Program-made: the position numbers and the translations under genes
The notes under the pieces: generated by a model
Databases searched by the model: none
Told to the model about the DNA's origin: nothing
Seen by the model: the letters and a program-made list of their open reading frames with translations, nothing else
Assembly (NCBI GenBank): GCA_965225955.1
Contig: CBDDBX010000015.1
Coordinates: forward strand, 32,923-96,922
Direction of reading: 5' to 3'
DNA from: Candidatus Aminicenantia bacterium
Lineage (GTDB): Bacteria; Acidobacteriota; Aminicenantia; UBA2199
Length of the DNA stretch: 64,000 nt
Part shown: positions 2,043 through 57,365 of the stretch, piece after piece
How the letters are laid out: every line of letters begins with the position of its first letter
Numbering within the stretch: position 1 is the first letter of the stretch

Positions 2043-2369
2043 ATAAAAGAGAATATAGCATTTGGTGATATTGATTGCAATAAAACTTTATGTATGCATG
2101 TATTAATTTTAAGTAAGGAGGATGGAACTTTTAATTTGCATAATTTAGTGAAAAAAATAAAACGAAAAATTGGGTAGAAGCATAATTATAAAAGAAAGCT
2201 ATTTGCTAATTAAGTAAAGAAGCAATTCAAAAAGTATAGTGAGGAGTAAATAAAAAAGTATGATTCCACTTAGTACCATTGTTACTTTCTAATATGGGTT
2301 CGTGATTGGAATTTGCTTTCTATTTACTTTTTGATTTATCATTTTCTTTAAGTAATTGGAGGGCGTTTT

Positions 2370-8761: not shown

Positions 8762-9034
8762 ATGAGTCATGGACATAAACACACTAAAGATGTTATTAAC
8801 CGGTTAAAGAGAATCGGTGGGCACGTGCAGGGTGTTGTCAGAATGGTTGAGCAGCATAAATCCTGTGATGAGGTTCTTCATCAGATATCAGCAATAAGAG
8901 CTGCGGTTTCAAAGGTAGGGCAGATAATAATTGATGATCACTTTGAGGAGTGCATCATGGGCAATATTGAGGGAGAAGATCTCAGGAAAGAGATGGGGCT
9001 ATTCAGAAACTCTCTCAGGAAGATCAATTTTTGA
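8762..9034 (+). CDS. csoR: CsoR/RcnR-family metal-sensing repressor, first gene of the efflux operon
   Basis: I moved the start to the ATG at 8762 because MSHGHKHTKDV matches the N-terminus of the paralog at 3235. The same Cys/His/Cys positions are present. A G-rich SD lies directly upstream. Confidence 0.85.
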   Translation: MSHGHKHTKDVINRLKRIGGHVQGVVRMVEQHKSCDEVLHQISAIRAAVSKVGQIIIDDHFEECIMGNIEGEDLRKEMGLFRNSLRKINF

Positions 9035-9053
9035 TACAGGTAGAGGTGTAAAG

Positions 9054-10556
9054 ATGAAAAAGTATTTAGCACTATTGGTTGTTACGATTTTAATGGTTAG
9101 TTGTAGTAATGGCGTGGCTCATAAAGAGCCCGGAAGTGATGGGGGGCATCACCACGATGAAGTAAAGGTAAAAATTACCTCCTATTCAGGCAAGTTTGAG
9201 CTTTTTGCAGAAGCAGAGCCTTTTGTTAAAGGTAAAACTTCAGGTGTACTTGCTCATTTTACATGGCTAAAAGATTTCAAGCCTCTTATGAAAGGCAGAG
9301 TTACTCTGGTACTTGAATCCGGGGGAAAAGTAGTGAAAGTAACAGAGAATGAGCCTGCAAGACCCGGGATCTATCGTTTTAAAGTAACCCCTGCAGCAAT
9401 TGGAAAGGGTAAGATCAGTTTCATTACAGATACAGGAGATACTGTTGTTGCAGATAATCTTAAGGTCTATAAGAGTGAACATGATGCTGTTCACGGAGAG
9501 GAGGGGCATGGAGCTGATTCTCAGGGTATATCCTTTACAAAAGAGAGATCCTGGAAGATAGATTTTGCTACAGTACTTCCTGAAAGAGGGGCATTCAGAA
9601 AAGTAATAAGAACTGTGGCAAAGATAGAATCTTCTCAGGAAGATGAGGAGATAATCACTGCTAAAGGCAATGGTATTGTTACTTTCAGTGCTTCCCAGGT
9701 TCTTGAAGGTAAAGATCTGGCAAAAGGAGAAAAACTGTTTTCAATATCCGGTGGAGGTATTGTGGATAACAATATGGCTGTAAGATTTGGGAAAGCCAGA
9801 AACAATTACAATAGAGCCAGAGCCGATTATATGAGAGCAAAGGATCTTTATAAGGATCGTATCGTTTCAAAAAAGGAGTTCCTGAAGATAAAAAACAGTT
9901 TTGAGAATGCAGAAGTTGCTTTTAACAATCTCAACAAGAACCTTATGGAAAACGGACAGGTTGTAAAGGCTCCTTTTAAAGGTTTTGTTAAAAATATATA
10001 TGTACAGAACGGGCAGTTCGTCAGATCCGGTGAGCCTGTGCTTAAGGTTTCAAAAAACAGCAGGCTGCTTTTGAGAGGGGATGTGCGGCCTCAGTTTGCA
10101 GAAGATCTCAGCAGGATAGTATCTGCTAATATCAGGACAATGTATGATAATCGTCTCTATACTCTTGAAGAGCTGAATGGAAAGGTTGTCTCTTTTGGCA
10201 GAAGTGTAAATGAGCAGAACTACCTTATTCCTGTTAATCTTCAGATAGATAATGTAAAAAACCTCCTGCCTGGAGGATTTGTGGAGCTTTTTCTGAAAGC
10301 TGAAACTTCAGCAGACAGATTGAGTATCCCTCTGGAATCAGTAATGGAGAGTCAGGGTGTTTACTACGTTTTTGTTCAGATTGACCCGGAAATGTTTGAG
10401 AAGAGAGAGATTGTTACTGGTAGTAGTGATGGTGTCAGTATTGAAGTTATAAGCGGACTTAAAAGTCATGAACGGGTAATCAGTAAAGGAGCTGTCTGGG
10501 TGAAGCTGGCTCAGGCTTCAGGAGCTCTGGATGCTGAGTCAGGGCATGCCCATTAA
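9054..10556 (+). CDS. RND efflux membrane-fusion (periplasmic adaptor) lipoprotein, CusB-like
   Basis: I moved the start to 9054 (MKKYLALLVVTILMVSCSN, a lipobox-like signal; SD GAGGTG). HlyD-like coiled-coil and beta-barrel layout. His-rich stretches GGHHHDE, HGEEGHG and ESGHAH. Confidence 0.85.
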   Translation: MKKYLALLVVTILMVSCSNGVAHKEPGSDGGHHHDEVKVKITSYSGKFELFAEAEPFVKGKTSGVLAHFTWLKDFKPLMKGRVTLVLESGGKVVKVTENEPARPGIYRFKVTPAAIGKGKISFITDTGDTVVADNLKVYKSEHDAVHGEEGHGADSQGISFTKERSWKIDFATVLPERGAFRKVIRTVAKIESSQEDEEIITAKGNGIVTFSASQVLEGKDLAKGEKLFSISGGGIVDNNMAVRFGKARNNYNRARADYMRAKDLYKDRIVSKKEFLKIKNSFENAEVAFNNLNKNLMENGQVVKAPFKGFVKNIYVQNGQFVRSGEPVLKVSKNSRLLLRGDVRPQFAEDLSRIVSANIRTMYDNRLYTLEELNGKVVSFGRSVNEQNYLIPVNLQIDNVKNLLPGGFVELFLKAETSADRLSIPLESVMESQGVYYVFVQIDPEMFEKREIVTGSSDGVSIEVISGLKSHERVISKGAVWVKLAQASGALDAESGHAH

Positions 10557-10568
10557 GAGAGAATTACT

Positions 10569-13500
10569 ATGCTGAACAGAATAATAAAGTTCTCTCTTGA
10601 GAATAAATTTCTTGTACTACTGGCTGCAATTGTAGTTATGGTGGTGGGAGTACAGACAACAATCAGTATGGATGTGGATGTTTTCCCCGATCTCACTGCT
10701 CCCAAAGTAGTTGTTATGACAGATTCTCACGGAATGGCTGCAGAAGAGGTGGAAAGACTGGTAACTTTTCCTATTGAATCTGCTGTTAACGGAGCTACAG
10801 ATGTAAGACGTGTAAGATCCTCTTCTGCTCAGGGGTTCTCTTTTGTCTGGGTTGAGTTTGACTGGGGGACAGATATTTTTAAAGCCAGGCAGATTGTTAG
10901 TGAGAAGCTTAATACCGTTGCTTCCCGGATGCCTCTGGGAGTAGGGATGCCAATTCTTGCACCTCAGTCCAGTGTTATGGGGGAAGTTTTCTTTATCGGT
11001 ATTCAGGGAACTAAAACTTCAATGATGGAGCTGAGAACTATTGCTGACTGGAATATTAAACCCATTATTCTTGCTACAGAAGGTGTGGCACAGGTTACTG
11101 TAATAGGTGGAGAATATAAACAGTATCAGGTTCTTGCTGATCCACTTAAAATGGGGTTTTACGATGTCTCTCTGGAGGAGCTTGCAGATATATGCAAAAG
11201 TATGAGCCAGAACTCTTCCGGTGGTGTAGTCAGGCAGTACGGTAATGAGTATGTTGTAAGAGGAATGGCAAGAACTTCAAAACTTAAAGAGCTTGGTAAC
11301 TCCCTTATTAAATTGAGAAAAGGTAAATCTGTAAGAGTCAGGGATGTTGCAGAAGTAACTATAGCGGGAGCTCCCAAAATGGGGTATGCATCAGAAAATG
11401 CAGAGCCGGCTGTAATTGTATCTGTTTCCAAACAACCAAATACAAATACTCTGGAGCTTACTGAGAGAATTGAAGCAAAACTGGAAGAGCTTAAAAGAAC
11501 ACTACCATCAGATGTGAAACTTGACACTCATATTTTCCGACAGGCAGATTTCATAAGTAGTTCAATAAGTAATGTTAAACAGGCGATAATTGAAGGGTCG
11601 ATTTTCGTAATAATTGTACTCTTTATGTTTCTGGGAGGTTTCAGAACCACATTTATTTCACTTATTGCCATGCCGGTATCTCTTCTGGGCTCAATAATTG
11701 TTCTCAGTAAACTGGGACTGAATATCAATACAATGAGTCTTGGAGGTATGGCTATCGCAATTGGTGCTCTGGTGGATGATGCGATTATTGATGTGGAGAA
11801 TGTCTATAAGAGGCTGAAGCAGAATGTATTAAAGCCGGTTGCAGAGAGAGCCTCTGCTTTTTCTGTGGTGTTTGAGGCGTCAAAGGAGATCAGAGCATCG
11901 ATTCTGAATGCAACACTTATAATAATTGTTGCATTTATTCCTCTCTTTTTTCTCTCAGGCATGGAAGGCAGGATGCTTAAACCTCTGGGGATATCATTTA
12001 TCGTATCCCTCTTTATATCTCTTATTGTGGCAATGACTATTACTCCAATTCTATGCCAGCTGTTTTTATCAAAGGAGTCTTATCTGAAAAGATCTGATCG
12101 TGAACCCTGGGTTACCAGAAAGCTTACCTCGGGTTATCGTAAGAGTCTTGGGTGGTCATTAGATCATAAAAAAACTGTGGTTTTTGTAGCTTTGGCTCTC
12201 TTTATTGTATCACTGATCACTTTTTCTACTTTTGGAAGAAGTTTTCTGCCGGAGTTTAATGAAGGTTCTCTTACTCTTTCTGTTATATGTAAGCCTGGAA
12301 CATCTCTTGAAGAGAGTAACAGACTGGGAAATCTTGTGGAGAGAGAGCTGCTGAATATTCCTGAAATAACCAGTACTGCAAGACGTACAGGACGGGGAGA
12401 GCTTGATGAGCATGCCCAGACTGTTAACAGTGCTGAAGTGGATGTGAATTTTGTTCTTAAAGAGAGGAGCCGGGAAGAGTTCATGCATATTGTGAGAGAG
12501 ACTCTTGCGGATATACCTGAAATAGCAGTAACAGTAGGGCAACCTCTGGGGCACCGTATTGACCATATGTTATCAGGTACGAGAGCCAATATAGCTGTTA
12601 AGATCTTTGGTTCTGATCTGCAGAAGCTGTTTCAGATAGGTAATAGTATTAAAGATGCTGTGGATGGGGTTGAAGGAATGGTGGATCTGACTGTTGAGCA
12701 GCAGATTGAAACGCCCCAGATACAGGTAAGAGCTAACCGGGAAATGCTGGCAGCTTATGGAATTACTATTGAGGAGTTTAATGAGTTTATAGATATATCT
12801 TTTGGTGGAGAAAAACTTTCTGATATATATGAAGGGCAGAAGAGGTTTGATCTTGTTTTAAGACTTAACAGTAACTACACCAGAACTATTGACGGGATAA
12901 AATCGGCACTTATAGATACTTCAGATGGTCGTAAAGTGGCTGTAGAGCAGGTGGCAGATGTTGTTTCTGTAGCTGGCCCCAGCACAATCAGCAGGGAGAA
13001 TGTCCAGAGAAAGGTGGTGGTTTCTGCTAATGTGTCGGGTAGGGATCTGCGCAGTGTTGTTCAGGATATTCAGAACCGAATTGAGAGCCGGGTCAATCTT
13101 CCCCGGGGATATCGCGTTGAATATGGTGGTCAGTTTGAGAGTGAAGCAAGAGCATCAAAGATATTACTACTGACATCGGTTATTTCGATTATCTTAATCT
13201 TCCTGCTTCTCTATGTTGAGTTTAATCACTACAAACTGGCGGGAATTATTCTTCTGAATCTTCCTCTTGCTCTTATAGGAGGAATATTCTCCATATATCT
13301 TACCTCTGGAGTATTAAGTATTCCGGCTATTATAGGATTTATAACCCTGTTTGGTATTGCTACAAGAAACGGAATTCTTCTTATTTCAAACTATAAGACT
13401 CTTCTGAAGAGAGGTGTATCTATTGCTGAAACTATCACAATGGGATCTGTAGACAGACTTAATCCTATTCTTATGACTGCTCTGACCTCAACACTGGCGC

Positions 13501-13670
13501 TTATTCCTCTTACTCTAAAAGGTGATCTTTCGGGAAATGAGATTCAGAGTCCCATGGCAACAGTTATTCTGGGAGGACTGCTGACTTCAACTCTCCTGAA
13601 TATATATTTCATTCCTGTTGTATACAGCCTTCTCTATAAACACGGCTTTCTTAAACTGGAGGAAAAATAA
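10569..13670 (+). CDS. cusA: Heavy-metal-efflux RND transporter, CusA-type
   Basis: 1033 aa with a 12-TM AcrB/CzcA architecture. The TM4 signature AIGALVDDAIIDVEN resembles the CusA A-x-G-x-x-VD-x-AI-x-x-x-EN pattern rather than the CzcA DFG-DGA-VEN pattern. Confidence 0.92.
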   Translation: MLNRIIKFSLENKFLVLLAAIVVMVVGVQTTISMDVDVFPDLTAPKVVVMTDSHGMAAEEVERLVTFPIESAVNGATDVRRVRSSSAQGFSFVWVEFDWGTDIFKARQIVSEKLNTVASRMPLGVGMPILAPQSSVMGEVFFIGIQGTKTSMMELRTIADWNIKPIILATEGVAQVTVIGGEYKQYQVLADPLKMGFYDVSLEELADICKSMSQNSSGGVVRQYGNEYVVRGMARTSKLKELGNSLIKLRKGKSVRVRDVAEVTIAGAPKMGYASENAEPAVIVSVSKQPNTNTLELTERIEAKLEELKRTLPSDVKLDTHIFRQADFISSSISNVKQAIIEGSIFVIIVLFMFLGGFRTTFISLIAMPVSLLGSIIVLSKLGLNINTMSLGGMAIAIGALVDDAIIDVENVYKRLKQNVLKPVAERASAFSVVFEASKEIRASILNATLIIIVAFIPLFFLSGMEGRMLKPLGISFIVSLFISLIVAMTITPILCQLFLSKESYLKRSDREPWVTRKLTSGYRKSLGWSLDHKKTVVFVALALFIVSLITFSTFGRSFLPEFNEGSLTLSVICKPGTSLEESNRLGNLVERELLNIPEITSTARRTGRGELDEHAQTVNSAEVDVNFVLKERSREEFMHIVRETLADIPEIAVTVGQPLGHRIDHMLSGTRANIAVKIFGSDLQKLFQIGNSIKDAVDGVEGMVDLTVEQQIETPQIQVRANREMLAAYGITIEEFNEFIDISFGGEKLSDIYEGQKRFDLVLRLNSNYTRTIDGIKSALIDTSDGRKVAVEQVADVVSVAGPSTISRENVQRKVVVSANVSGRDLRSVVQDIQNRIESRVNLPRGYRVEYGGQFESEARASKILLLTSVISIILIFLLLYVEFNHYKLAGIILLNLPLALIGGIFSIYLTSGVLSIPAIIGFITLFGIATRNGILLISNYKTLLKRGVSIAETITMGSVDRLNPILMTALTSTLALIPLTLKGDLSGNEIQSPMATVILGGLLTSTLLNIYFIPVVYSLLYKHGFLKLEEK

Positions 13671-14851
13671 TGAGATTTTTACTGATAACTATTCTGGCTA
13701 TCCTCCCTGGCCTTGCTTATGCTCAGGAGAGTGTTGATAAGGCTCTCAGGGATATAGCAGAAAATAACAGAACTCTTAAAGCTCTTTATAAGAAGAGGAA
13801 GGCTGAAAAGAGAGGGGCAATGACGGGAATATATCCAGTGAACCCTGAAGTGGAACTGGGGTTTCTTAAAGCATCCCCGGGGAATCTGAGTAAAAGAACA
13901 GATCTTAAAGTAACTCAGAGTTTCGATTTTCCATTAGCTTATATCTACAAACGAAAAGCAGGAACTGCTGCGGGGAATAAGATTGAGTGGCAGTGGAAGC
14001 TGGAGAAGAAGAATCTGCTTTTTAAGGCGAGATTGATTTGTCTTGATCTGATTTTCACCAATGCCATGGAGAGAGAACTGGGACGAAGGATGGAGCAGGC
14101 AGAACAGATCGCTTCTGCTGTTAAATCCCGGTTTTCCCGGGGAGAGGCCAATATTCTGGAGCTTAATAAGGTGAAACTTAATCTTCTTAATGTAAGAAAA
14201 GAGGTGGAACTCAACCGTATCCAGCGGGAAGCTCTGAAAGCCGACCTTAAACAGATGAATGGAGGAAAAGATATTATTATTACAGATACTGGATTTACTC
14301 TCTCTGTATTAAGCAGAGGCTTTAAGGAGTGGTACAAGGTCGCTGAATCCAATAATGTTGAGTTGCAGTTATTGAGAAGTGAGGTGGTTCGTATGAGAGC
14401 CAGAGTGAAACTTGAGAGAGCATTGAGTCTGCCTAAGTTCTCTATAGGTTATATGAGTGAGTCTGCTGGAGGAGAATCTTACAAAGGTGCAACAGTGGGA
14501 GTATCTGTTCCACTGTTTGAACATAAAAACCGTGTTAAGTCTGCAAAAGCAGGAGCTGAAGCTGCGGAACAGATTGTGATTGCAGATAAGATGCTGTTTT
14601 ATAACCGTATGGAGGCTCAGTATCGTAAAGTTGTTGCAATTGGAGAATCTGTCAGGAATTACAGAAAGCTTCTTGCTGAACTGGATCATAGTGAACTTCT
14701 TAAGAAAGCGATGGATAAAGGCGAGATCTCTCTGCCTGAGTATATTTTTGAGCTGTCTCAGTATAATGAGAGCAGAACCCGGCTGATTGAAGCAGAAAGA
14801 GAGTATGGAAAGGCTATGGCGGTGCTTAAGAGTTATTCTGATAAATTTTAA
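13670..14851 (+). CDS. Outer-membrane efflux factor (TolC/CusC-like)
   Basis: 393 aa. Its start overlaps the stop of the pump gene (TAATG). Signal peptide ends ...PGLAYAQ. Two-repeat coiled-coil composition typical of OEP-family proteins. Confidence 0.8.
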   Translation: MRFLLITILAILPGLAYAQESVDKALRDIAENNRTLKALYKKRKAEKRGAMTGIYPVNPEVELGFLKASPGNLSKRTDLKVTQSFDFPLAYIYKRKAGTAAGNKIEWQWKLEKKNLLFKARLICLDLIFTNAMERELGRRMEQAEQIASAVKSRFSRGEANILELNKVKLNLLNVRKEVELNRIQREALKADLKQMNGGKDIIITDTGFTLSVLSRGFKEWYKVAESNNVELQLLRSEVVRMRARVKLERALSLPKFSIGYMSESAGGESYKGATVGVSVPLFEHKNRVKSAKAGAEAAEQIVIADKMLFYNRMEAQYRKVVAIGESVRNYRKLLAELDHSELLKKAMDKGEISLPEYIFELSQYNESRTRLIEAEREYGKAMAVLKSYSDKF

Positions 14852-15259: not shown

Positions 15260-15856
15260 ATGAAGAGTTTTATTGCTGTTTTGTTACTGGTTTTAGCTTT
15301 ATGGTTTTTTGCTTTCAGAGAAGATAGTGTGGAACTGGGACCCGGGGTAAAGGTAAGTGAAGTGCCGGTTCAGGGGCCCATTAAAGGTATAAAAGCTTTT
15401 GCTTTCAGAGGTTACAGAATTATTCCTAAAGCAGGATTTATTGTTAAAGGGAAAGTCCTTAGTCGGGAGAATTACTATTCTGACAGGAATTCAGAAATAT
15501 CACCTCTGGATATTGCTCTTGGATGGGGACGGATGTCTGACGAAAAGGTTCTTGATAAAATTGATATAAGTCAGGGAGGTCGGTGGTATCGCTGGTATAC
15601 TGATAATTTTCCTATTCCCAGACGTGAGATAGAAACCTGTAGTGCCAACATGCATATGATTCCTTCAACTCCCGGAATAGAGAAAGAGCTTCAGCAGATA
15701 AGAAAAGGTGATATTGTAAGAATTACAGGAATGCTTGTTAATGTTGAGGGAAGGAACAATTACAGGTGGAACAGTTCTTTAACCCGTAATGATACTGGAG
15801 ATGGGGCCTGTGAGATTATTTTTGTTACCAGAGTGGATATTCTGGAAACCAGATAG
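15260..15856 (+). CDS. Hypothetical membrane-anchored protein
   Basis: 198-aa ORF with an N-terminal anchor (MKSFIAVLLLVLALWFFAF). The soluble domain has conserved-looking blocks (SPLDIALGWGRMSD, SANMHMIP, NDTGDGACEII). I recognise no family. Confidence 0.5.
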   Translation: MKSFIAVLLLVLALWFFAFREDSVELGPGVKVSEVPVQGPIKGIKAFAFRGYRIIPKAGFIVKGKVLSRENYYSDRNSEISPLDIALGWGRMSDEKVLDKIDISQGGRWYRWYTDNFPIPRREIETCSANMHMIPSTPGIEKELQQIRKGDIVRITGMLVNVEGRNNYRWNSSLTRNDTGDGACEIIFVTRVDILETR

Positions 15857-15909: not shown

Positions 15910-15938
15910 TTGAAACTTGTGTGCGGGACTGGTATACT
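15910..15938 (+). promoter_or_regulatory. Candidate sigma-70 promoter of the graspetide operon
   Basis: TTGAAA (15910-15915), a 17-nt spacer, then TATACT (15933-15938), about 100 nt upstream of the first ATP-grasp gene. Confidence 0.4.
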
Positions 15939-16041
15939 GAATCTTAAACAGCAGATATAACAGGGGGCCTCTTAAGGGTTTTATGAGAGGATGTCTGGTT
16001 AACATGAAGTTGTTGCTGCTGTATGGGGAGTTTTAGAAGTT

Positions 16042-17016
16042 ATGTGCAGGAAAATACTGTGTATTACTCACAGTGAGGATTATTATGTTGTTGACAGAGT
16101 TATGGGCGCTCTTGAGAAAGAGGGACTGGAACCTGTAAGAGTCGATTCAGACGGTTTCCCGGAATCAATTAAATTAAATACTGCTTTTATCAGTGGTAAA
16201 GGTAATTCCACTATTACAGTTGAAGGGCAGAATATTGAAGTTGCTGATATTGGTGGTGTATGGCTCAGGAAACTTAGAATAGGTAAGCCGGCTGAAGATC
16301 TGGACCATAGATACAGAGCAAGCTGTATGAGAGAGACAGATGCAAGCCTCAGAGGCTGGATGAGTAGCCTGTATCACCTGCCCTGGATGGATCTGCCTGA
16401 AATTTCTGTCAGAGGGGAAAATAAGATGTTGCAGTTAAGGGAAGCTGTTTCTGCAGGATTTGATATACCAGATACAATTACAGGTAATGAACCATCTGCA
16501 GTAAGAGATTTTTTTAACAGATGTGAAGGTAGAGTTGTTACCAAAATGCTCACTGCAGTTAGTGCGAGTATGGATGGATCAACACCTTTTATGTACACCA
16601 GCAGAGTTGAAGAGAAAGATCTTGAAGATCTGGACAGTCTTAAATACTGTCCAATGATTTTTCAGGAACTGGTGGAGAAAGAGTGTGAGTTAAGGGTTAT
16701 CTATGTAGATGGTGAAATTTTTACTGGTGCAATAGATGCCTCAAATAGTCTGAGAGGGAAAGTTGACTGGAGACTTGCAGCAACAGGAGAGTGTTGCTGG
16801 GTACATAGTGACCTGCCGAATGGAGTTAAAGATACTCTTCGTAAATTTATGAAGAGTATGGGACTGAGATATGGGGCTGTAGATATAATCAGAACTCCTG
16901 ATGAGAAGTATATTTTTCTTGAAGTTAATCCCGGAGGGGAGTGGGGAATGCTTGAAAAGTTTCTGGAATATCCTGTTTCAGTGGCAATTGCAAAATCGTT
17001 TAAAAAGAGGTTATAG
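16042..17016 (+). CDS. Graspetide ATP-grasp ligase, MdnB/MvdC-like (putative omega-amide ligase)
   Basis: 324 aa. Blocks ILCITHSEDYYVVDRV, VWLRK, ENKMLQLREA, YCPMIFQE, ELRVIYVDGEIFTGAI, VDWR, YGAVDIIRTPDEKYIFLEVNPGGEWGMLE match my recollection of the MdnB/MvdC type. Confidence 0.85.
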   Translation: MCRKILCITHSEDYYVVDRVMGALEKEGLEPVRVDSDGFPESIKLNTAFISGKGNSTITVEGQNIEVADIGGVWLRKLRIGKPAEDLDHRYRASCMRETDASLRGWMSSLYHLPWMDLPEISVRGENKMLQLREAVSAGFDIPDTITGNEPSAVRDFFNRCEGRVVTKMLTAVSASMDGSTPFMYTSRVEEKDLEDLDSLKYCPMIFQELVEKECELRVIYVDGEIFTGAIDASNSLRGKVDWRLAATGECCWVHSDLPNGVKDTLRKFMKSMGLRYGAVDIIRTPDEKYIFLEVNPGGEWGMLEKFLEYPVSVAIAKSFKKRL

Positions 17017-17019
17017 ATA

Positions 17020-18000
17020 ATGAGAGTATTAGTTGTTACCCATAGTAATGATAACGAATCTGTGGAGATGGTGGGGAAAGAGATTGAAGCACTTGGAGGA
17101 GAGGTTGTCCGGTTTAATAGTGATGAGTTTCCTGTTTCTGTAAAACTTGAAGCCGGGTATTCAGATTCTGGTACAGATCTCTATATGGAAAACAGTGAAG
17201 GTCGATGGAACCTTTCGGAAATAGATGCTGTATGGTACAGAAGATTAAGTCTGGGTGGGAAACTACCTGGGGACCTTGGTGAAGATATTATAAGACCATC
17301 AGTAGAGGAATCCAGAAGGTTGTTCGTAGGACTTCTGGAGTCTATGGATGTCTTTACAATGAATAGTTACCACTCAGTTAGATATTCAGAAAATAAACTG
17401 CTTCAGCTGAAAGTTGCGGGAGAGCTGGGACTTAATGTACCGGATACAGTAGTTACAAACAGTCCGGGAGCAGTAAGGGAACTGTCTGGCAGATGTAAAG
17501 ATGGGATTATTACCAAAATGCAGTCCTCTTTTGCTCTTTACAGAAATGGTGAGGAGCATGTTGTCTTTACAAATAAAGTTTCTGCTGATGATATGGAGCA
17601 TCTGAATGACCTGAAATACTGCCCAATGATATTTCAGGAGAAGCTGGATAATATACAGGAGTTAAGAGTAACTATTGTGGGGGATCAGATTTTTGCAGCT
17701 TCCATTGATCCTGCTCTGAGGAGAGGTGCTGAGGTGGACTGGCGCAAAAAAGGGGCAGAGCTGATAAATGACTGGAAGCCTTATGAATTGCCGGAAGATA
17801 TTAAAGTTAAACTCCTGAAATTTATGGACTATTTTAAGATCAATTACGGGGCTATGGATATAATTGTAACACCTGAAGGTAAGTATGTTTTTCTGGAGAA
17901 CAATCCCGGAGGGGAGTTCTTCTGGCTGGACAGGTGCGCAGGACTGCCGATTGCCGGGGCAATAGCTTCAGTTCTTATGGATAGAAGTTACAGACGTTGA
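17020..18000 (+). CDS. Graspetide ATP-grasp ligase, MdnC/MvdD-like (putative omega-ester ligase)
   Basis: 326 aa. Blocks VLVVTHSNDNES, AVWYRR, ENKLLQLKVA, IITKM, YCPMIFQE, ELRVTIVGDQIFAASI, DWRKKG, YGAMDIIVTPEGKYVFLENNPGGEFFWL closely follow the MdnC pattern as I recall it. Confidence 0.88.
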   Translation: MRVLVVTHSNDNESVEMVGKEIEALGGEVVRFNSDEFPVSVKLEAGYSDSGTDLYMENSEGRWNLSEIDAVWYRRLSLGGKLPGDLGEDIIRPSVEESRRLFVGLLESMDVFTMNSYHSVRYSENKLLQLKVAGELGLNVPDTVVTNSPGAVRELSGRCKDGIITKMQSSFALYRNGEEHVVFTNKVSADDMEHLNDLKYCPMIFQEKLDNIQELRVTIVGDQIFAASIDPALRRGAEVDWRKKGAELINDWKPYELPEDIKVKLLKFMDYFKINYGAMDIIVTPEGKYVFLENNPGGEFFWLDRCAGLPIAGAIASVLMDRSYRR

Positions 18001-18026
18001 GAATTTAAAAAATATAGGAGGGAAAA

Positions 18027-18275
18027 ATGGAAAACAAAAAAAGACCATTTTTTGCACGTTTTCTTGAGAATCAGGTTTCAGAGGATAAGATGGAAGGAAC
18101 CAGTGGTGGTGCAACCAGCAAATATCCTTCAGACACTGATGAGAGTATTCTTGGTGATATGCTTAAAGAGAAGCAGGATATTGTTGTAAAGGCGACTAAC
18201 AAGTATCCATCTGATAGTGATGAAACAGTTACCATGAAATATCCATCAGACCATGATGAACATATGGAAATGTAG
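18027..18275 (+). CDS. Microviridin-class graspetide precursor with three core motifs
   Basis: 82 aa with a strong SD (AGGAGGG at 18016-18022). Leader motif PFFARFL at 18045-18065. Cores TSKYPSDTDE (18114-18143), TNKYPSDSDE (18195-18224) and TMKYPSDHDE (18231-18260). Confidence 0.9.
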   Translation: MENKKRPFFARFLENQVSEDKMEGTSGGATSKYPSDTDESILGDMLKEKQDIVVKATNKYPSDSDETVTMKYPSDHDEHMEM

Positions 18276-18304
18276 CTTTATCAGTTAACTCATTTACAAT
18301 CTAT

Positions 18305-18334
18305 GCAGCTTCTGTCACTCTGATCGGAAGCTGC
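18305..18334 (+). terminator. Intrinsic terminator after the graspetide precursor gene
   Basis: GCAGCTTC / GAAGCTGC 8-bp stem lies 30 nt after the stop, followed by TTTCTCC...ATTTTTTTT. Confidence 0.65.
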
Positions 18335-18493
18335 TTTCTCCACTGAAATTTTTTTTGTAACCCTTTTTTGTAAAGGGAGTAGTCTGATTAATATCGGGCA
18401 GTTGTTGTAATGCCTGATGTAAAGACTGATAATTGAATTAAGGAGGCAGTTTGCCAATGGCTTGCGGAAACATCGCTAGGGCTGAGACAGATC

Positions 18494-19117
18494 ATGAGTA
18501 GCGATGTAAATGACAACAACTACCAGGTAGAGCTTGTTAAGAGGGCATGTAAAGGAGATAGTGGAGCCTTTCATGAGATTGTTGGTCTCTACAGGAAAAA
18601 AGTTTACTTCATTGCCTATGATATCTGTGGTGACAGACATGAGGCGGAAGATATTGCACAGGAGGTATTTATTAAAGTGTTCAGATTCATAGATAAGTTC
18701 AGATTTGATGCGAAGTTCAGTTCATGGATACATCAGATTGCAGTAAATACCTCTCTTGATGTCGTAAGAAAACAGAAAAACCGAAGCGATTATATAGATG
18801 ATACAGAACTTGAGAAGCGTGATTCAGATTCAGCTATAGGGAGCGGGGAGATAAAATCCCCGGAAAAAGCCACTATTGAAGAGGTGTTGCACAACAGAGT
18901 CAGAGGGGTTCTTGGGGAGCTTTCCCGACAGGAACATTCAGCTTTTGTGATGAGGTACTATAACGGACTGAAACACCAGGAAATAGCTGAAGTAATGTCT
19001 CTTTCTGTTAATACGGTGAAAACAATGCTTTTCAGAGGTAAGAAGAAGTTACAGAAGAAGCTGGCACCTCTGACAGAGGAGTATAAGTTCTGTAAACAGG
19101 AGATGTTTAATGATTAG
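18494..19117 (+). CDS. ECF-type RNA polymerase sigma-70 family factor
   Basis: 207 aa. Region 2 (EDIAQEVFIKVFRFIDKFRFDAKFSSWIHQIAVNTSLD) and region 4 HTH (YNGLKHQEIAEVMSLSVNTVKTMLFRGKKKL). Confidence 0.9.
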   Translation: MSSDVNDNNYQVELVKRACKGDSGAFHEIVGLYRKKVYFIAYDICGDRHEAEDIAQEVFIKVFRFIDKFRFDAKFSSWIHQIAVNTSLDVVRKQKNRSDYIDDTELEKRDSDSAIGSGEIKSPEKATIEEVLHNRVRGVLGELSRQEHSAFVMRYYNGLKHQEIAEVMSLSVNTVKTMLFRGKKKLQKKLAPLTEEYKFCKQEMFND

Positions 19118-19919
19118 TTGCAGGGATTGTGAGATGCTGTTTGATGAGTATTCAGCAGAAGAGCTTTCTGATAGTGAGATGGCTTCTGTGAGCAAACATC
19201 TTGAGAGTTGCCCAAATTGCAGCAGAAACTTTAGTGAGCAGGAAGTTATTACAAAACCCCATAAAAGAGTGGAACCTTCTGAGGATTTCTGGGAAGGCTT
19301 CACTGACAGGCTTCACTCCAGAATGGTTGAAGAGGGGGTTGTTGAGGAATCCGGAACAACTACTGAGAAGAAGAGAAAATCTTTTGAGATTTTTACTCTT
19401 TCATGGTTGAAGCAGAGTATTGCAGCAGCAGCCGTTCTGGTAATAGGGATATTTATAGGAAGTATATTCTTTTCTCAAAGTGGAGAGCTGGGAGAGGATT
19501 CACGAAACAGTGGACTAATGATTGCTTCAGATGATAAATCCGAGGGGGCACTTCTGACAAGAGCTTCACATTTTATCAACCGCTCCAGAGTTATTCTGCT
19601 TGCTATAGATAATTTTGACCCTGAAACAGAAGAGGCGGGTGTTATGGATTTTGCTTATCAGAAGAGTGTAACCAGTGATCTTGTTAAAGAGGCAGCACTT
19701 CTTAAAGAGGGGTTGGGGGAATCCAGACAGAGAAGACTTAAAGAACTTATCAGTGATCTGGAAGTTATTCTTCTTCAACTGGCAAATTACGATAAAGGTA
19801 TGGAAGTAGAGACAATTAAGATGGTAAAGGATAACCGCTATATAAACGGTGTGCTCTACCGTATACGAGTTAATGATCTTCGAAGAGAAACAAATAAAAG
19901 ACGGGTTGAAAGTTATTAA
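19110..19919 (+). CDS. Anti-sigma factor (zf-HC2 type, single TM)
   Basis: Overlaps the sigma-factor gene by 8 nt. N-terminal CRDCE...H-x3-C-x2-C (KHLESCPNC). Central TM AAAAVLVIGIFIGSIFF. Confidence 0.75.
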   Translation: MISCRDCEMLFDEYSAEELSDSEMASVSKHLESCPNCSRNFSEQEVITKPHKRVEPSEDFWEGFTDRLHSRMVEEGVVEESGTTTEKKRKSFEIFTLSWLKQSIAAAAVLVIGIFIGSIFFSQSGELGEDSRNSGLMIASDDKSEGALLTRASHFINRSRVILLAIDNFDPETEEAGVMDFAYQKSVTSDLVKEAALLKEGLGESRQRRLKELISDLEVILLQLANYDKGMEVETIKMVKDNRYINGVLYRIRVNDLRRETNKRRVESY

Positions 19920-19941
19920 TAACCCGAAATGGGAGGAAAGT

Positions 19942-21252
19942 ATGAAAGTTAATAGAAGAGCCGGAGTAATGGCTGCGTTAATGTTTGTGTGTATGCTGAT
20001 ACTGCCTTCTCTGTCTGTGATGGCTGAGAATGAGTACAAGAAGAAAGATATTAAAGCCTTCAGAAATGCCTATAATCTTATACTTAAAGAGAACTGGAAA
20101 AAGGCTTCAGAAGAGTTCAACAGCTTTATAAAGCTTTATCCGGAGAGTCACTATGTGGATGATGCCCTTTTCTGGCACTGTTACTGCAGGGAAAAAACCG
20201 GGCAGGACCTGGAGAAGGTTTTCAGTTGTTATACAGAGTTTATTAAGAAGTATAAAAGAAGCAAGTGGAGTGATGATGCAAGATCCAACATTATCAGAAT
20301 CGGTCATATTCTGGCAAAAAAAGGTAAGAAAGAGTACATAACAGTTATCAAAGCTTATGAAGAGAGCCAGAATGCAGATGTGAAACTTGCAGCTCTTCAG
20401 GCACTTGAAGATATCGGTGATGAGAGATCACTGAAAACAATAATTGATATGTACGACTCATCTGCTGACCCTAAATTAAAAAGAAGGGTTATAAATATTC
20501 TGGAAGATTTCAATAATCCTGTGGCTTTCAGTAAAATAAAGCAGATTGCTCTGACAGAAAAGAATGAGAGGCTCAGAAGAAGAGCGATTGATACTCTTTC
20601 AGACATAAATCGTCCGGGAACAGTAAAAGTGCTTATGCAGATAGTAAAGAGTAATGCGACTTCTGTTATCAAAAGAGCAGCTCTTGAAGCAATGGAAGAT
20701 GTTAGAAGTGAAGGTTCAAAACACTCTAAAGAGGCTCTTGATGCTCTTGTTGAAATTGTAAAAACTTCTAAAGATCTAAAACTGAGAAAGAGTGCAATCA
20801 ATTCCATAGAGGATTTCGAAACTCCTGAAGCGGAAAATGTACTTTACGATATGGCTCTCAATATTGAAGATGCTGATATTGCCTGTAAAGCTGTGGAAGC
20901 TCTTAGTGACAGACTTAAGAAAAGTAATCCTGAAAAGCTTCTGGAAGTTTATCGTAAAAACAGAAGAGTGAAGGTAAGAAAAGAGGTAATTGATAATATT
21001 GAAGATCTTAAAAGTTATAAAGGAATTCCTCTTCTTATGAAGCTGGCAGAAACAGAAACAAATCCTGAACTGCTATGCGATATCATTAACGGTCTTGAGG
21101 ATTATAATAGAGACGAACCTGTAGCAATGCTTCTGAAGTTTGCAATGGAATCAAAGAGTATGAAGGTAAGAAAAGCTGCAATAGATGCTCTTGAAGAGAT
21201 AGGTTCTGCCAAAGCAAGAGAAGCTCTGAGTAAAATTCTTGGAGCAAACTGA
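19942..21252 (+). CDS. Secreted TPR plus HEAT-repeat protein
   Basis: I moved the start to 19942 (MKVNRRAGVMAALMFVCMLILPSLSVMA; SD GGGAGG). There are many HEAT/PBS-lyase-like repeats, e.g. VKLAALQALEDIGDERSL and LRRRAIDTLSDINRPGTV. Confidence 0.8.
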   Translation: MKVNRRAGVMAALMFVCMLILPSLSVMAENEYKKKDIKAFRNAYNLILKENWKKASEEFNSFIKLYPESHYVDDALFWHCYCREKTGQDLEKVFSCYTEFIKKYKRSKWSDDARSNIIRIGHILAKKGKKEYITVIKAYEESQNADVKLAALQALEDIGDERSLKTIIDMYDSSADPKLKRRVINILEDFNNPVAFSKIKQIALTEKNERLRRRAIDTLSDINRPGTVKVLMQIVKSNATSVIKRAALEAMEDVRSEGSKHSKEALDALVEIVKTSKDLKLRKSAINSIEDFETPEAENVLYDMALNIEDADIACKAVEALSDRLKKSNPEKLLEVYRKNRRVKVRKEVIDNIEDLKSYKGIPLLMKLAETETNPELLCDIINGLEDYNRDEPVAMLLKFAMESKSMKVRKAAIDALEEIGSAKAREALSKILGAN

Positions 21253-21340
21253 GAAAAAAGATAATCGTTATCTGAAAAGATATTCCAGCGGATTGATTCA
21301 AATCCGCTGAACCATTTAATAAACATACTGGAGAAAGATA

Positions 21341-22531
21341 GTGGAACTTTATAAAAAAATATTAGTAGTGCATCTTATTATTCTGTTGTTCTGTGTATCC
21401 GCTGAAGCCGGGGCAGATAAGCTGATAAACAGAGCCGGTGATTCAGGTACTCCTGCATCAAAATGGCAGAAAGCTTTTAAAGACGGAATGGGAAGTAAGA
21501 GGAGTTTCTGGATAGCATGGAGCGTTGACCGGATGATGGGAGAAAATACATGGTTTCTGGGTAGTGACAGGTTCTGTGGCTGCATAACTACCTGTAATTT
21601 CGACTCAACATTTGTGAATATGAAAGGAGAAGCTCTTGGAAAGATTGTTTATGGTAGTAGTTATAAAGTAAAAACTCCTGTGAGAAAAAGTAACAGAGAA
21701 CAGATCAGGGAAGCAGCAGAAGAAGCTATAGCCAATATTGACGGGAAAAGAAAAGGGCGGAAGATAAAGAGAGTATCAAAAGAGGTGGCAGTACTTTTCC
21801 TTTTTGAACCAGAGAAAGGCAGATACCCGGTGAGAATAGTTCATAGTAATATGTCCATGCCTTTTAATAGTGGCGGAAACCGTATCTACTGGCTTGGTAA
21901 AACAGATGAGAAGATAAGTTTTACCTTTATGAAAAATCTTTTTCTCAAAGAGAAGAATGAGAAGGTGGCTAAACGCTATATTTCAGCTCTGGGTTATCAC
22001 TCAAACAGTAGTGATGTTATTCAGTTCATGAGTTCTGTTCTCAGAGGTAATTACAGTGATAATATACGGAAACGGACAGCAGGGGAGCTGGGTGATCAGA
22101 ATAGTCCTGTTGCAGCAGAAGCTCTGCTGAAGACTGCAATGCAGGATTTCTCCCTTGATGTCAGAAGAGCTGCTGTAAACGGACTTGAAGATATTGAGCT
22201 TCCTGTAGCAGTTAATGCTCTTATTAAGATTGCTGATAGTGCCAATAATATCTATATAAGGCTGAAAGCGATTAATGTACTTGGTGATGTTGGAACACCT
22301 GAAGCTGCCCGGGCTCTTAAGAGAATTGCATGGGAGGATAAGACTTTGAGAATACAGTGTAAAGCGGTTGATGCTTTTGAAGACCTTGATAATAACAGAG
22401 GGGTTCCTTACCTGGCAGAAATAGCAAAATCCCATCCTGTTTCAAAAGTCAGAAAGAGAGCTCTGGATACTCTGAGTGATATAGATGATCCAAGAGCTTT
22501 TGAAACAATCAGAAGTATTGTGAAACAGTAG
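21341..22531 (+). CDS. Secreted protein with C-terminal HEAT repeats
   Basis: GTG start and a signal-like N-terminus (LVVHLIILLFCVSAEAGA). C-terminal repeats: VRRAAVNGLEDIELPVAV, IRLKAINVLGDVGTPEAA, VRKRALDTLSDIDDPRAF. Confidence 0.75.
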   Translation: MELYKKILVVHLIILLFCVSAEAGADKLINRAGDSGTPASKWQKAFKDGMGSKRSFWIAWSVDRMMGENTWFLGSDRFCGCITTCNFDSTFVNMKGEALGKIVYGSSYKVKTPVRKSNREQIREAAEEAIANIDGKRKGRKIKRVSKEVAVLFLFEPEKGRYPVRIVHSNMSMPFNSGGNRIYWLGKTDEKISFTFMKNLFLKEKNEKVAKRYISALGYHSNSSDVIQFMSSVLRGNYSDNIRKRTAGELGDQNSPVAAEALLKTAMQDFSLDVRRAAVNGLEDIELPVAVNALIKIADSANNIYIRLKAINVLGDVGTPEAARALKRIAWEDKTLRIQCKAVDAFEDLDNNRGVPYLAEIAKSHPVSKVRKRALDTLSDIDDPRAFETIRSIVKQ

Positions 22532-22910: not shown

Positions 22911-25292
22911 ATGATAAGCAGCTACTTTAAAACAGGTTTTCGTAATCTTAAGAGAGAGAGACTCTCATCTGTTATCAACATAATCGGCTTAACTGCAGGT
23001 ATTTTTACCACAATGCTGATTGCTACATATATCTATGCTGAGTTAAACTACGACTCATTTCATAAGAAGTCTGACCGTATAGTCAGGATCATTACCATAT
23101 CAGAGAATCCTGAAAACCGGGGTGCAAGAACAGCCATGAGTATGGTTCCTCTTGTTCATGAATATGGGAAGATTGATGGAGTTGAAACGCCAACCAGAAT
23201 ATTTAAGGGATGGCGGGGAATGTCCGCAAGGTACAAAGGGAAGGTCTTTGAGAACAATCCAATTCTGTATACAGATAATAATTTTTTCAGGCTATTTGAT
23301 TTTAAACTTCTTGACGGGAGTTTCAAAGATGCCCTTAAAGACCCCTATACAGTAGTTATTAACAGATCTTCAGCAATTAAGTTTTTTGGAACTATTAATG
23401 CCGCAGGTGAAAATATTCAGCTGGAGATGATGGAAGAAAGAGATAAATACTCATCTTTCAGAATTGCGGCAGTTATTGAGGATACTCCTTACAACTCCCA
23501 TTTCAGTTACAGTGTTTTTATGCCTTTTGCCAATCTTAAATGGCTACAAAAGCAGAAGAGTAATGAGGTATATAACTATTTTGCAATAAAAGAGGGATAT
23601 AGAAGAGATGTTGTGCTGGCTCAGGTTAAAGAGGTGTGTGACAGGATTTATAAACCAAGAGAGAAGTATGGATATCACGGAGTTGTGAGGTTTCAGAACC
23701 TCAAAGATATAAGATTATATTCATCTGATATGGGTTATGATTTCAAAGTACAGGGTAATATTCTCAGAGTGTATGTTTTCTCTGCTTTTCCTTTTATTCT
23801 TCTTTTTATTGCAGGGCTTAATTTTATAAATATTCTCAATGCAAGATTACAGAATCGTTTCAAAGAGATGGGGCTGCGAAAGGTTCTGGGAGCAGGAAAA
23901 AGAGCGATTCTGTATCAGCTACTGGGGGAATCTCTTGCCACGGTTTTTATAACAGGAATAGTAAGTATTGTGCTGTATTTCAGTTTTCTGAACGGGTTTG
24001 GTGAACTTGTTGAGATGGAACTCGCTAAATTTGAAGAGAACTGGATGCTGATCTCTCTTATTACCCTTGCAGTATCTATGCTTATTGGAGTAATTGCCTC
24101 ACTACTTCCAGGGGCACTTATGGCCCGGACCAGAACCCTTACGCTATTTGAAGGTCCCGGGATAGGAAGAAAAAAGAACTATCTCGTTAATTTTACAGTG
24201 CTGGTACAGTTTGCTGTTGTAGTTGTGATGATAATATCGACTCTTGTTATCTATAACCAGCTGAATTTTATGAAGGATATAGATCCGGGCTTTAATAGAG
24301 AGCAGGTGCTGAATTTTCAGGTAGCTGATGCCGCCACCCGTGGAGTTCTGAAAAACAGATTAATGAATCACCCGGAGTTTATCAGTATTGCAGGTTCTGA
24401 GAGTATCCCGGGGCAGAGAAGAAGCGGGCAGTTACTGACAAATTTCGGAGGCAGAACTCTGAATGACAGATATAATATGTATGAGAACAGAGTTGAGTCG
24501 GGATATATAAAAACATACGGACTGGAGCTGATTGCCGGCAGGGATTTTATTGAAAACAGTGAAAGTGATCGTAGTAGTATTATTGTCAATGAAGAAGTAT
24601 TGAAGAAAGCCGGGGTAGATGCAGAAGAGGCTATTGGTAAAAAGTTGAACTATTTTAACAGGGATTTCACTGTAATAGGGGTTGTGAAAAATTATCACTT
24701 CTTCTCACTAAAGAGGAAAATTGATCCTCTTGTACTTAGTAACTACAGAACAGGATTCCATACAATATCTGTGAGATTTAAAGCAGGTAAGGTAAAAGAA
24801 GTGCTTGACCTTATTAAAAAAGAGATGAAACAGCTGGAACCTGAAACTGCTGTTAGTCCGGTTTTTGTGGATGAGATTTTCAGGAAAATGTATCGTAAAG
24901 AGGATATATTTAATCAGATAGTTTTTTATGGAGCTGTTATTGTGATACTACTTGCAATTGGAGGGCTCTTTGCTCTTACATATTTTGCTGTTGTTAAGAA
25001 GACTAAAGAGATAGGCATAAGAAAAGTACTGGGGGCTACAACATCTGTAATCAATTTTCAATTAATAAGAGAGTTCATAAAATGGATAGGCTTTGCAAAC
25101 TTCATTGCTCTGCCTGCAGGGTATCTGATAATGAGAGGATGGCTGAACAATTTTGCATATAAAATTGATCTGAATCCCATCTATTTCATCTCTTCTACAC
25201 TTATCAGTATTCTTCTGGCTCTTGGAACGATTATCTATCTTACTACCAGGGCTGCAAGCAGACAACCTGCAGAAAACATAAGATACGAATAG
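22911..25292 (+). CDS. FtsX/MacB-type ABC transporter permease (two FtsX modules)
   Basis: 793 aa. N-terminal TM, large periplasmic domains and two 4-TM FtsX modules with GLRKVLGAGK / GIRKVLGATT motifs. There is no adjacent ATPase gene. Confidence 0.88.
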   Translation: MISSYFKTGFRNLKRERLSSVINIIGLTAGIFTTMLIATYIYAELNYDSFHKKSDRIVRIITISENPENRGARTAMSMVPLVHEYGKIDGVETPTRIFKGWRGMSARYKGKVFENNPILYTDNNFFRLFDFKLLDGSFKDALKDPYTVVINRSSAIKFFGTINAAGENIQLEMMEERDKYSSFRIAAVIEDTPYNSHFSYSVFMPFANLKWLQKQKSNEVYNYFAIKEGYRRDVVLAQVKEVCDRIYKPREKYGYHGVVRFQNLKDIRLYSSDMGYDFKVQGNILRVYVFSAFPFILLFIAGLNFINILNARLQNRFKEMGLRKVLGAGKRAILYQLLGESLATVFITGIVSIVLYFSFLNGFGELVEMELAKFEENWMLISLITLAVSMLIGVIASLLPGALMARTRTLTLFEGPGIGRKKNYLVNFTVLVQFAVVVVMIISTLVIYNQLNFMKDIDPGFNREQVLNFQVADAATRGVLKNRLMNHPEFISIAGSESIPGQRRSGQLLTNFGGRTLNDRYNMYENRVESGYIKTYGLELIAGRDFIENSESDRSSIIVNEEVLKKAGVDAEEAIGKKLNYFNRDFTVIGVVKNYHFFSLKRKIDPLVLSNYRTGFHTISVRFKAGKVKEVLDLIKKEMKQLEPETAVSPVFVDEIFRKMYRKEDIFNQIVFYGAVIVILLAIGGLFALTYFAVVKKTKEIGIRKVLGATTSVINFQLIREFIKWIGFANFIALPAGYLIMRGWLNNFAYKIDLNPIYFISSTLISILLALGTIIYLTTRAASRQPAENIRYE

Positions 25293-26663: not shown

Positions 26664-27029
26664 ATGAGTTATGAGTGGCTTGAGGAATACTGTTGTGCTA
26701 AAGCCGGAGTAGTTAAAGATTATAAAGTTGAATGGGAAGTTTTCAGATATATGGTCGGGGGGAAAATGTTTGTTATGCAGGGGCATAATAAGGAAAAGCG
26801 TCCTATTATATCTCTCAAATGCGAACCCCTTCTGGCAAAATCACTGAGAGATGAACATGAGGATATTATACCGGGATATTATCTAAATAAAGAGCACTGG
26901 AACTCTATCTATGAAGATGGTGATGTTTCTGATGAACTTATGAAAAGAATGGTGGATATGTCTTATGAACTTGTTTTTAAGACTTTGACATTGAAGATGA
27001 GAAAGGAGATTGAAGGTGATCAGAACTGA
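26664..27029 (+). CDS. MmcQ/YjbR-family protein
   Basis: 121 aa. The pattern ...YMVGGKMFVM...LKCEP...IIPGYYLNKEHWNSI is typical of the YjbR fold family. Confidence 0.8.
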   Translation: MSYEWLEEYCCAKAGVVKDYKVEWEVFRYMVGGKMFVMQGHNKEKRPIISLKCEPLLAKSLRDEHEDIIPGYYLNKEHWNSIYEDGDVSDELMKRMVDMSYELVFKTLTLKMRKEIEGDQN

Positions 27030-57349: not shown

Positions 57350-57365
57350 CACAGGAGGAAAACAA

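Follow-up and report, generated by a model that had tools for sequence, protein, structure and literature searches.

We analysed a stretch of 64,000 nt of DNA from a Candidatus Aminicenantia bacterium (contig CBDDBX010000015.1), hereafter called the window, in which positions are counted from its first nucleotide. Its subject of interest is a 2.3-kb cassette of three genes in the order B-C-A, comprising two ATP-grasp ligase genes (ligase 1 and ligase 2) and the gene for a small precursor peptide (Table 1). An initial annotation of this DNA had read the locus as a microviridin-class graspetide operon, with two ATP-grasp open reading frames (ORFs) of about 325 aa separated by 3 nt, followed 26 nt later by an 82-aa ORF that has a strong Shine-Dalgarno (SD) sequence, the leader motif PFFARFL and three T-x-K-Y-P-S-D-x-D-E cores. 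These gene models were all confirmed, the ligases being 324 and 326 aa long and the sequence AGGAGG lying 5 nt before the ATG of the precursor gene. All three ORFs are intact and close-set, with intergenic spacings of 3 nt (ligase 1/ligase 2) and 26 nt (ligase 2/precursor) and with SD sequences, and the GC content of the cassette (0.41) is that of its surroundings (about 0.38-0.41).

Table 1. Features of the three-gene cassette and of its precursor peptide, in window coordinates; bond assignments are predictions.
Feature	Position	Strand	Description
Candidate sigma-70-type promoter, TTGAAA-N17-TATACT	15910-15938	+	Upstream TG; ~104 nt before ligase 1
Ligase 1 gene	16042-17016	+	324 aa, ATP-grasp, MdnB/MvdC type; predicted Lys-Glu omega-amide (lactam) former
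Ligase 2 gene	17020-18000	+	326 aa, ATP-grasp, MdnC/MvdD type; predicted former of two omega-esters (lactones) per core
Shine-Dalgarno sequence, AGGAGG	18016-18021	+	5 nt ahead of precursor ATG, read from the sequence
Precursor gene	18027-18275	+	82 aa; one leader and three cores
Leader recognition motif, PFFARFL	18045-18065	+	Residues 7-13; sole occurrence in six-frame translation of the window
Double-glycine, G27-G28	18105-18110	+	Two residues before core 1; predicted leader cleavage site
Core 1, TSKYPSDTDE	18114-18143	+	Predicted T30-D36 and S35-D38 esters, K32-E39 amide; P1 = Ser
Core 2, TNKYPSDSDE	18195-18224	+	Predicted T57-D63 and S62-D65 esters, K59-E66 amide; P1 = Asn
Core 3, TMKYPSDHDE	18231-18260	+	Predicted T69-D75 and S74-D77 esters, K71-E78 amide; P1 = Met
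Terminator-like element	18305-18356	+	Hairpin (18305-18334) with UUUCU after it and T8 at 18349-18356

The nature of the system is most directly apparent from the precursor, whose sequence is MENKKRPFFARFLENQVSEDKMEGTSGGATSKYPSDTDESILGDMLKEKQDIVVKATNKYPSDSDETVTMKYPSDHDEHMEM. When all six frames of the 64 kb were scanned with regular expressions, PFFARFL was found once and the core motif three times, all within the precursor ORF, and no second, hidden precursor was found in this stretch. The NCBIfam model NF033738 (microviridin/marinostatin) matches the precursor at 63.8 bits against a cut-off of 26, and Pfam PF12559 (Inhibitor_I10) does so at 44.9 bits against a cut-off of 21. Since the former match has an E value of 1.8e-17 and covers three separate stretches, it indicates that the resemblance of these motifs to the family is far above chance. 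Thr1, Lys3, Ser6, Asp7, Asp9 and Glu10, the full set of residues for two esters and one amide, are present in three out of three cores, and we assigned the ring positions in Table 1 by the known topology of microviridins (PMC13039773, PMC7823629). The cores are separated by linkers of 17 residues (cores 1 and 2) and two residues, TV (cores 2 and 3), and the double-glycine (GG) precedes core 1 only. Class II precursors typically have such GG sites (PMC13039773); the class was defined by Ahmed et al. in 2017 as having one leader, two to five tandem cores and one or more double-glycine motifs (summarised in PMC7823629 and PMC13039773). With one leader, three cores and a GG motif, the precursor can be classified by its sequence as a class II (multi-core) microviridin within the group 1 graspetides, and in the classification of PMC12848669 it falls into 'class 1', which has plain tricyclic cages, one or more in number.

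Both ligases point to the same family, each in its expected role. The best NCBIfam model for ligase 1 is MvdC (TIGR04185; 396.5 bits, versus 274 for MvdD) and the best one for ligase 2 is MvdD (TIGR04184; 411.1 bits, versus 264.5 for MvdC), the top model in either case scoring more than 120 bits above the model of the paralogue. PF21068, the pre-ATP-grasp domain of MvdD, matches both proteins, with 100.7 bits for ligase 1. Of the proteins with solved structures, MdnB (5IG8; 288 bits, 43% identity) is the best match of ligase 1, with AMdnB (7M4S) at 42%, and ligase 2 is closest over its full length to MdnC (5IG9; 281 bits, 44% identity), with CdnC (7MGV) at 39%; these best matches are reciprocal, ligase 1 pairing with MdnB/AMdnB and ligase 2 with MdnC/CdnC. 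Because the matches to the solved homologues are full-length, with an E value of 1e-83, the ATP-grasp fold can be regarded as settled by homology. Moreover, all columns that do not vary among 14 proteins of the MvdD family are kept in ligase 2. For a wider comparison, the window and its relatives were taken together as a set of 83 loci, from which 87 precursors and 177 cores were tabulated. In a neighbor-joining tree of 160 ligases, of which 156 come from these 83 loci and four are the solved enzymes, two clades are cleanly separated: the B clade, which holds ligase 1 together with MdnB and AMdnB, and the C clade, which holds ligase 2 together with MdnC and CdnC. The two proteins are thereby typed as a putative amide former of the MdnB/MvdC type and a putative ester former of the MdnC/MvdD type, respectively. 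The initial annotation had likewise told them apart, noting that the first enzyme ends in NPGGEWGMLE (MdnB-like) and the second in NPGGEFFWL (MdnC-like). GEWGMLE and GEFFWL can indeed be seen in the alignments with the solved enzymes, which end in NPGGEWGMLE (MdnB), NPTGEWGMLE (AMdnB), NPVGEFFWLE (MdnC) and NAAGEFFWLD (CdnC).

So how would the cassette work? It very probably forms a self-contained B-C-A system whose product, a microviridin-type (group 1) graspetide of class II with three cores, is made as in its homologues, and the steps proposed here are taken over from those that have been characterised (PMC5934393, PMC7823629, PMC13039773). The PFFARFL helix of the leader would dock onto each of the ATP-grasp ligases. 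With ATP, ligase 2 would form two esters per core, the large lactone between Thr1 and Asp7 and then the small one between Ser6 and Asp9, and like AMdnC it would probably work distributively over the three cores. Ligase 1 would then close the amide between Lys3 and Glu10, resulting in three tricyclic cages and the loss of nine waters in total. Less certain are the last two steps, in which the leader may be cut at the conserved GG, and the cores may be separated from each other, by peptidase activity encoded elsewhere in the genome. Also less certain is the function of the products, which by homology are predicted to be substrate-mimicking serine-protease inhibitors; the residue that separates Thr from Lys (P1) would determine their specificity, and it is Ser, Asn and Met in the successive cores. 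Met at this position, in a variant of microviridin L, gave the strongest inhibition of subtilisin (PMC7823629).

Further information comes from the sole close relative that we found, a Logan contig of 14 kb (L001), whose ligases share 59-62% identity with those of the window and which has the same B-C-A order and three cores; two scans of JGI metagenome contigs did not yield close relatives, and a look-up of the window's ligase 2 itself in the contig index gave no record. The L001 precursor (L001:2745-2954) has the cores TQKFPSDSDE, TMKAPSDSDE and TMKHPSDSDE, with Phe, Ala and His at position 4, where an aromatic residue is usual. Only three residues make up each of its linkers, and it has no counterpart of the 17-residue linker 1 of the window peptide. 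Ring residues, leader motif and GG (MNGGATQKFPSD in L001) are kept between the two precursors, while P1, the aromatic position and the linker lengths differ. This combination of conserved ring residues with a variable P1 and position 4 fits a functional inhibitor scaffold that may be diversifying.

L001 also bears on the extent of the cassette. The initial annotation had let a promoter and a hairpin followed by a run of T bracket exactly these three genes. Of the two signals, the promoter sequence has 10 out of 12 matches plus the TG, and is the top plus-strand site in the 185-nt intergenic gap. As for the hairpin, the 90-nt stretch that contains it folds at -20.6 kcal/mol (z = -4.49), with none of 200 shuffled sequences being as stable. 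This upholds the hairpin, from whose end the T8 run begins 15 nt away; a simple terminator scan made no call at 18305-18334. The backbone genes that L001 has in common with the window are the end of the second HEAT-repeat gene and genes for an acidobacterial duplicated orphan permease (ADOP), a metallophosphoesterase, YjbR, a GNAT and CsgG. Within this shared backbone, ligase B, ligase C and precursor A occupy a different intergenic site, some 4.4 kb apart: in L001 they are flanked by the second HEAT gene on one side and the ADOP permease on the other, and in the window they lie upstream of a module of extracytoplasmic function (ECF) sigma factor, anti-sigma factor and two HEAT-repeat proteins. 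Therefore, exactly these three genes have been relocated as a block between the window lineage and L001, and this block move provides independent support for the boundaries that were originally drawn. A search for repeats flanking the cassette that could explain the relocation yielded nothing convincing.

How far does the cassette stand out from its family? In GTDB species-representative genomes there are at least 549 related loci, and the candidates scored included 1070 database proteins at E <= 1e-30. The best 80 GTDB loci, none of which exceeds 52% identity to ligase 2, comprise about 44 from Acidobacteriota (mainly Pyrinomonadaceae and Blastocatellia) and 28 from Cyanobacteria, the remainder being a few from Proteobacteria, Myxococcota, Bacteroidota and Planctomycetota. 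That the host is not cyanobacterial is borne out by its seryl-tRNA synthetase, whose best matches are 67-68% identical, those from named sources reaching 63-67%. The few named relatives, which span several phyla, are Aminicenantes (the best-scoring named one), Acidobacteriota, Kapabacteria, Deferrimicrobium and Omnitrophota, none of them cyanobacterial. Together with the ADOP-family permeases of the window, the Aminicenantes match hints at a relationship to Acidobacteriota. The initial annotation had considered this context unusual, which it is not, given the large share of Acidobacteriota and the literature, in which reports of microviridin clusters from other bacteria than cyanobacteria go back to at least 2017-2018 (PMC5934393, PMC8939145; also PMC12848669). 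The novelty of the precursor had been overstated as well. Precursors with two to five cores are common, three cores are the modal state in the cyanobacterial loci, and three-core precursors fall within the defined class II (PMC7823629, PMC13039773). Of the 87 precursors, 35 have a GG ahead of their first core, and DE at core positions 9 and 10 is the commonest state (113 of 177 cores). Gene order, on the other hand, was rightly singled out: the ligase order B then C is near universal among the 83 loci, and the precursor gene lies upstream of the ligases in 70 of them and downstream in two, the window and L001.

No GNAT, ABC exporter or protease adjoins the cassette, as had been stated. In a tally of recurrent neighbour ORF clusters in 81 related loci, ABC transporters were found near 15, HlyD near 12, GNAT/TPR proteins near 13 and peptidyl-prolyl isomerases near 11. 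Since ABC transporters and GNAT/TPR proteins are this infrequent, most relatives likewise have no GNAT, ABC transporter or protease beside them, and their absence here is not the oddity it had been taken for; the same has been noted for graspetides generally (PMC13039773). The window's only GNAT (27010-27516) lies 8.7 kb downstream in a YjbR-GNAT pair. We rejected it as an equivalent of MdnD, as it is unlinked, overlapping the end of YjbR and lying beyond an opposite-strand gene; in NCBIfam it has only very weak matches (~27 bits) to spermidine and ribosomal-protein S5 N-acetyltransferase models. It may have a role in trans. Several other genes recur beside microviridin loci of Acidobacteriota, namely an FHA-GAF-sigma-54 activator (12 loci), a gene for an Rv2179c-like exonuclease (8 loci) and a Peptidase_S8 subtilase (5 loci: L006, L011, L019, L031 and L037); examples of such recurrent neighbours are found at L040:319-2226, L006:2081-4243 and L044:4604-5167. 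The subtilase could be either a processing enzyme or a target.

We must, however, take into account a number of points that weigh against a working class II microviridin cassette as described above. A GG site implies a C39 peptidase, and class II precursors are often, though not invariably, accompanied by a transporter with a C39 peptidase domain. Among the window ORFs scanned there was no hit to Pfam C39 or ABC_tran; a tblastn search of the 64-kb window with the C39-ABC pair of locus L002 returned nothing, and no other protease or dedicated exporter was found in the 64 kb either. Both ligases score below the NCBIfam equivalog cut-offs (396.5 versus 425 for ligase 1; 411.1 versus 475 for ligase 2), and their identity to characterised enzymes is only 43-44%. 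As the right model ranks top by more than 120 bits despite these sub-cut-off scores, the ligases are best described, from their profile matches, as divergent members of the same family. Promoter-like sites are not enriched in the region (7, versus 7.7 +/- 2.4 in shuffled sequences), and for this reason the element at 15910-15938, which does exist and is the best plus-strand match, stays a promoter candidate only. Finally, P1 is mostly Leu in the uncharacterised non-cyanobacterial loci, and the targets of cores 1 and 2 are not predictable from this position, because Ser and Asn are rare there (1 and 7 of the 177 cores, respectively).

Among the alternatives, the one that survives best concerns the fate of the modified peptide, which may not be split into three microviridins and would then act as one tethered, three-headed inhibitor, with the leader removed or not. 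We consider this unlikely, though worth keeping in mind. The window has neither a linker protease nor a C39 transporter, GG stands ahead of core 1 alone, cores 2 and 3 are a mere two residues apart in the window, with three-residue linkers throughout in L001, and single-chain graspetides with multiple rings are known, e.g. chryseoviridin (PMC8939145). However, natural microviridins have two to three residues N-terminal to Thr, and short linkers are therefore compatible with cleavage right after each core. Furthermore, class II precursors are thought to be released as individual products whether or not GG separates their cores (PMC7823629), and unlinked proteases are the rule for graspetides (PMC13039773). 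A more far-reaching version would have a single uncleaved inhibitor with three heads of unusual specificity (P1 Ser, Asn and Met) and no dedicated C39 transporter, functionally tied to the ECF sigma/anti-sigma/HEAT module or to an ADOP (MacB/DarB-like) permease. The cassette does adjoin this module in both the window and L001, on opposite sides, but we would give such a link very little credence. If true, the peptide could modulate a regulatory or envelope protease, or make use of a MacB-type export route so far undescribed for graspetides.

It is also possible, yet improbable, that the ring pattern differs from that of three complete cages, either because the cores are only part-cyclised (bicyclic and marinostatin-like, with esters only) or because the linker carries extra rings, as in chryseoviridin and the 'class 2/3' peptides. 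Core 3, TMKYPSDHDE, closely resembles the marinostatin core, which we take to be TMRYPSDSDE. The 39% identity of ligase 2 to CdnC, an enzyme of dual function, would also suit such a pattern, as would the presence of Ser, Asp, Glu and Lys within linker 1. Conversely, none of the cores has lost Lys3 or Glu10, and the cassette encodes an MdnB-type ligase of full length, while marinostatin has no amide bond and its clusters have no MdnB (reviewed in PMC7823629). Extra rings are further disfavoured by the precursor, which carries neither the TxxxxD nor the (KxxE)n motif as defined in PMC12848669, and by the lack of a third ligase.

The last alternative, a silent or decaying remnant that has lost its transporter and peptidase and gives no mature product, might be raised given that relatives at about 52% identity have C39-ABC transporters and several precursor genes, unlike the window and L001, and that clusters for peptides of ribosomal origin with post-translational modifications (RiPPs) are often silent in culture (PMC11626197), but it is highly improbable, as the three ORFs are intact and the ring residues, leader motif and GG are conserved across two lineages whose proteins have diverged to 59-62% identity, which indicates purifying selection, the SD sequences are strong and the spacing is tight, and 66 of the 81 related loci likewise have no member of the conserved ABC-transporter cluster nearby. 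The interpretation as a functional cassette whose three cores are each fully cyclised, and probably released, thus remains the one we favour.

The genes around the cassette include the hemerythrins, TonB receptors and secretin that the initial annotation had listed, at the GC content of about 40% it had given. Directly 3' of the cassette (18494-22531) lie the ECF sigma factor, which is SigW/RpoE-like, a zf-HC2 anti-sigma factor and the two HEAT-repeat proteins. Two duplicated MacB_PCD/FtsX permeases of the ADOP family, without an adjacent ATPase, are found at 22911-25292 and 40338-42974; the former is weakly similar to DarB, the permease of the darobactin exporter (107 bits, far under the cut-off), and its counterpart in L001 directly follows the precursor gene. 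On the upstream side, 185 nt before ligase 1 and on the same strand, is the gene of a 198-aa protein with an N-terminal hydrophobic segment (15260-15856), which matches nothing in Pfam or NCBIfam and occurs neither next to the cassette in L001 nor beside other microviridin loci. We considered the sigma, anti-sigma, HEAT, 198-aa and ADOP neighbours as cluster members and rejected them because they do not recur beside other loci, the exceptions being L001 and distant ADOP paralogues; being absent beside microviridin loci elsewhere, they are treated as lineage context.

The RND efflux operon just upstream, at 8931-14851, is complete, with an HlyD-type adaptor, an AcrB-type pump and an outer-membrane factor, and no link between it and the cassette was found. 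Three hemerythrin-domain genes fall within 16 kb (30480-30887, 39017-39412 and 45820-46269), all on the minus strand and thus opposite to almost all other genes. At 283-3152, where the GC content is 0.29-0.34, a C-5 cytosine DNA methylase gene (1023-2042, minus strand) abuts an unannotated 246-aa ORF (283-1023), and this segment may be a restriction-modification island. A type II secretion/type IV pilus set (T2SSF, the T2SSE ATPase and several small ORFs) occupies 56147-63233, and its 696-aa secretin has a FecR_C-like stretch in the N-terminal part. Over the whole window (1-64000), genes are nearly all on the plus strand, the GC skew is about +0.2 throughout, and the cumulative skew climbs almost steadily with short dips at the opposite-strand genes, a pattern consistent with a single leading-strand segment of a replichore. 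An Rfam search of the whole window gave no match, and so no RNA marker for taxonomic placement.

Taken together, the cassette is a real, divergent addition to the well-known microviridin family, and it leaves the picture of that family unchanged, non-cyanobacterial clusters, precursors with several cores and clusters that lack a GNAT, an ABC transporter or a protease all having been documented already. Its points of interest are modest: the minimal architecture, a gene order that is rare, a GG site to which no C39 transporter is linked, the unusual P1 residues and the relocation of the cassette. What it adds is a minimal class II microviridin system of an uncultured lineage that has been poorly sampled; the nearest relative is 62% identical and the others are at most 52%. 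In practical terms it offers a compact, readily cloned ligase pair with a three-core substrate, and the rare Ser and Asn at P1 could widen the specificity panel of protease inhibitors. Furthermore, it illustrates a question for the field, namely how graspetide precursors that contain GG are processed and exported without a linked C39 transporter.

Of the known systems, AMdnA/AMdnB/AMdnC of Anabaena sp. PCC 7120 (PMC5934393) is similar in having one PFFARFL leader with three tandem TxKYPSDx(D/E)(D/E) cores, and one ligase of the MdnB type and one of the MdnC type. It differs in its cyanobacterial host and in that the MdnE of Anabaena PCC 7120 has an N-terminal C39 domain (PMC7823629), whereas the window has no C39 transporter. 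Moreover, the window's precursor gene lies downstream of the ligases, and the linkers of 17 and two residues and the P1 residues Ser, Asn and Met set its precursor apart. The class I systems MdnA-E of Microcystis and MvdA-E of Planktothrix agardhii have both ligase types in common with the window (43% and 44% identity), as well as leader motif and core topology. In contrast to the three-core precursor of the window, theirs are single-core, and their clusters hold a GNAT (MdnD/MvdB) and an ABC transporter (MdnE/MvdA), neither of which is adjacent here. Judging by the naming of mvdA-E, the Planktothrix precursor gene (mvdE) presumably also comes after the two ligases.

Marinostatin of Alteromonas and chryseoviridin of Chryseobacterium (CdnC) likewise combine a PFFARFL-type leader with a YPSDxDE core. 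All three cores of the window contain Lys and an MdnB-type ligase is encoded, so that the cassette is not of the marinostatin type. Chryseoviridin precursors add an N-terminal TxxxxD ring motif (PMC12848669), which the window's precursor does not have. In the scheme of the same study, 'class 2' chryseoviridin and 'class 3' myxomiditide carry TxxxxD or (KxxE)n N-terminal to the cage, class 3 with a third, MyxF-type ligase, and as the cassette has neither these motifs nor a third ligase, it belongs to neither type. Similar in organisation are the uncharacterised loci of Acidobacteriota (Pyrinomonadaceae, Blastocatellia) and of other non-cyanobacterial metagenome-assembled genomes, which, as in the window, have the ligases in the order B then C, usually no conserved GNAT or ABC transporter, and precursors of one to five cores that end in DE.

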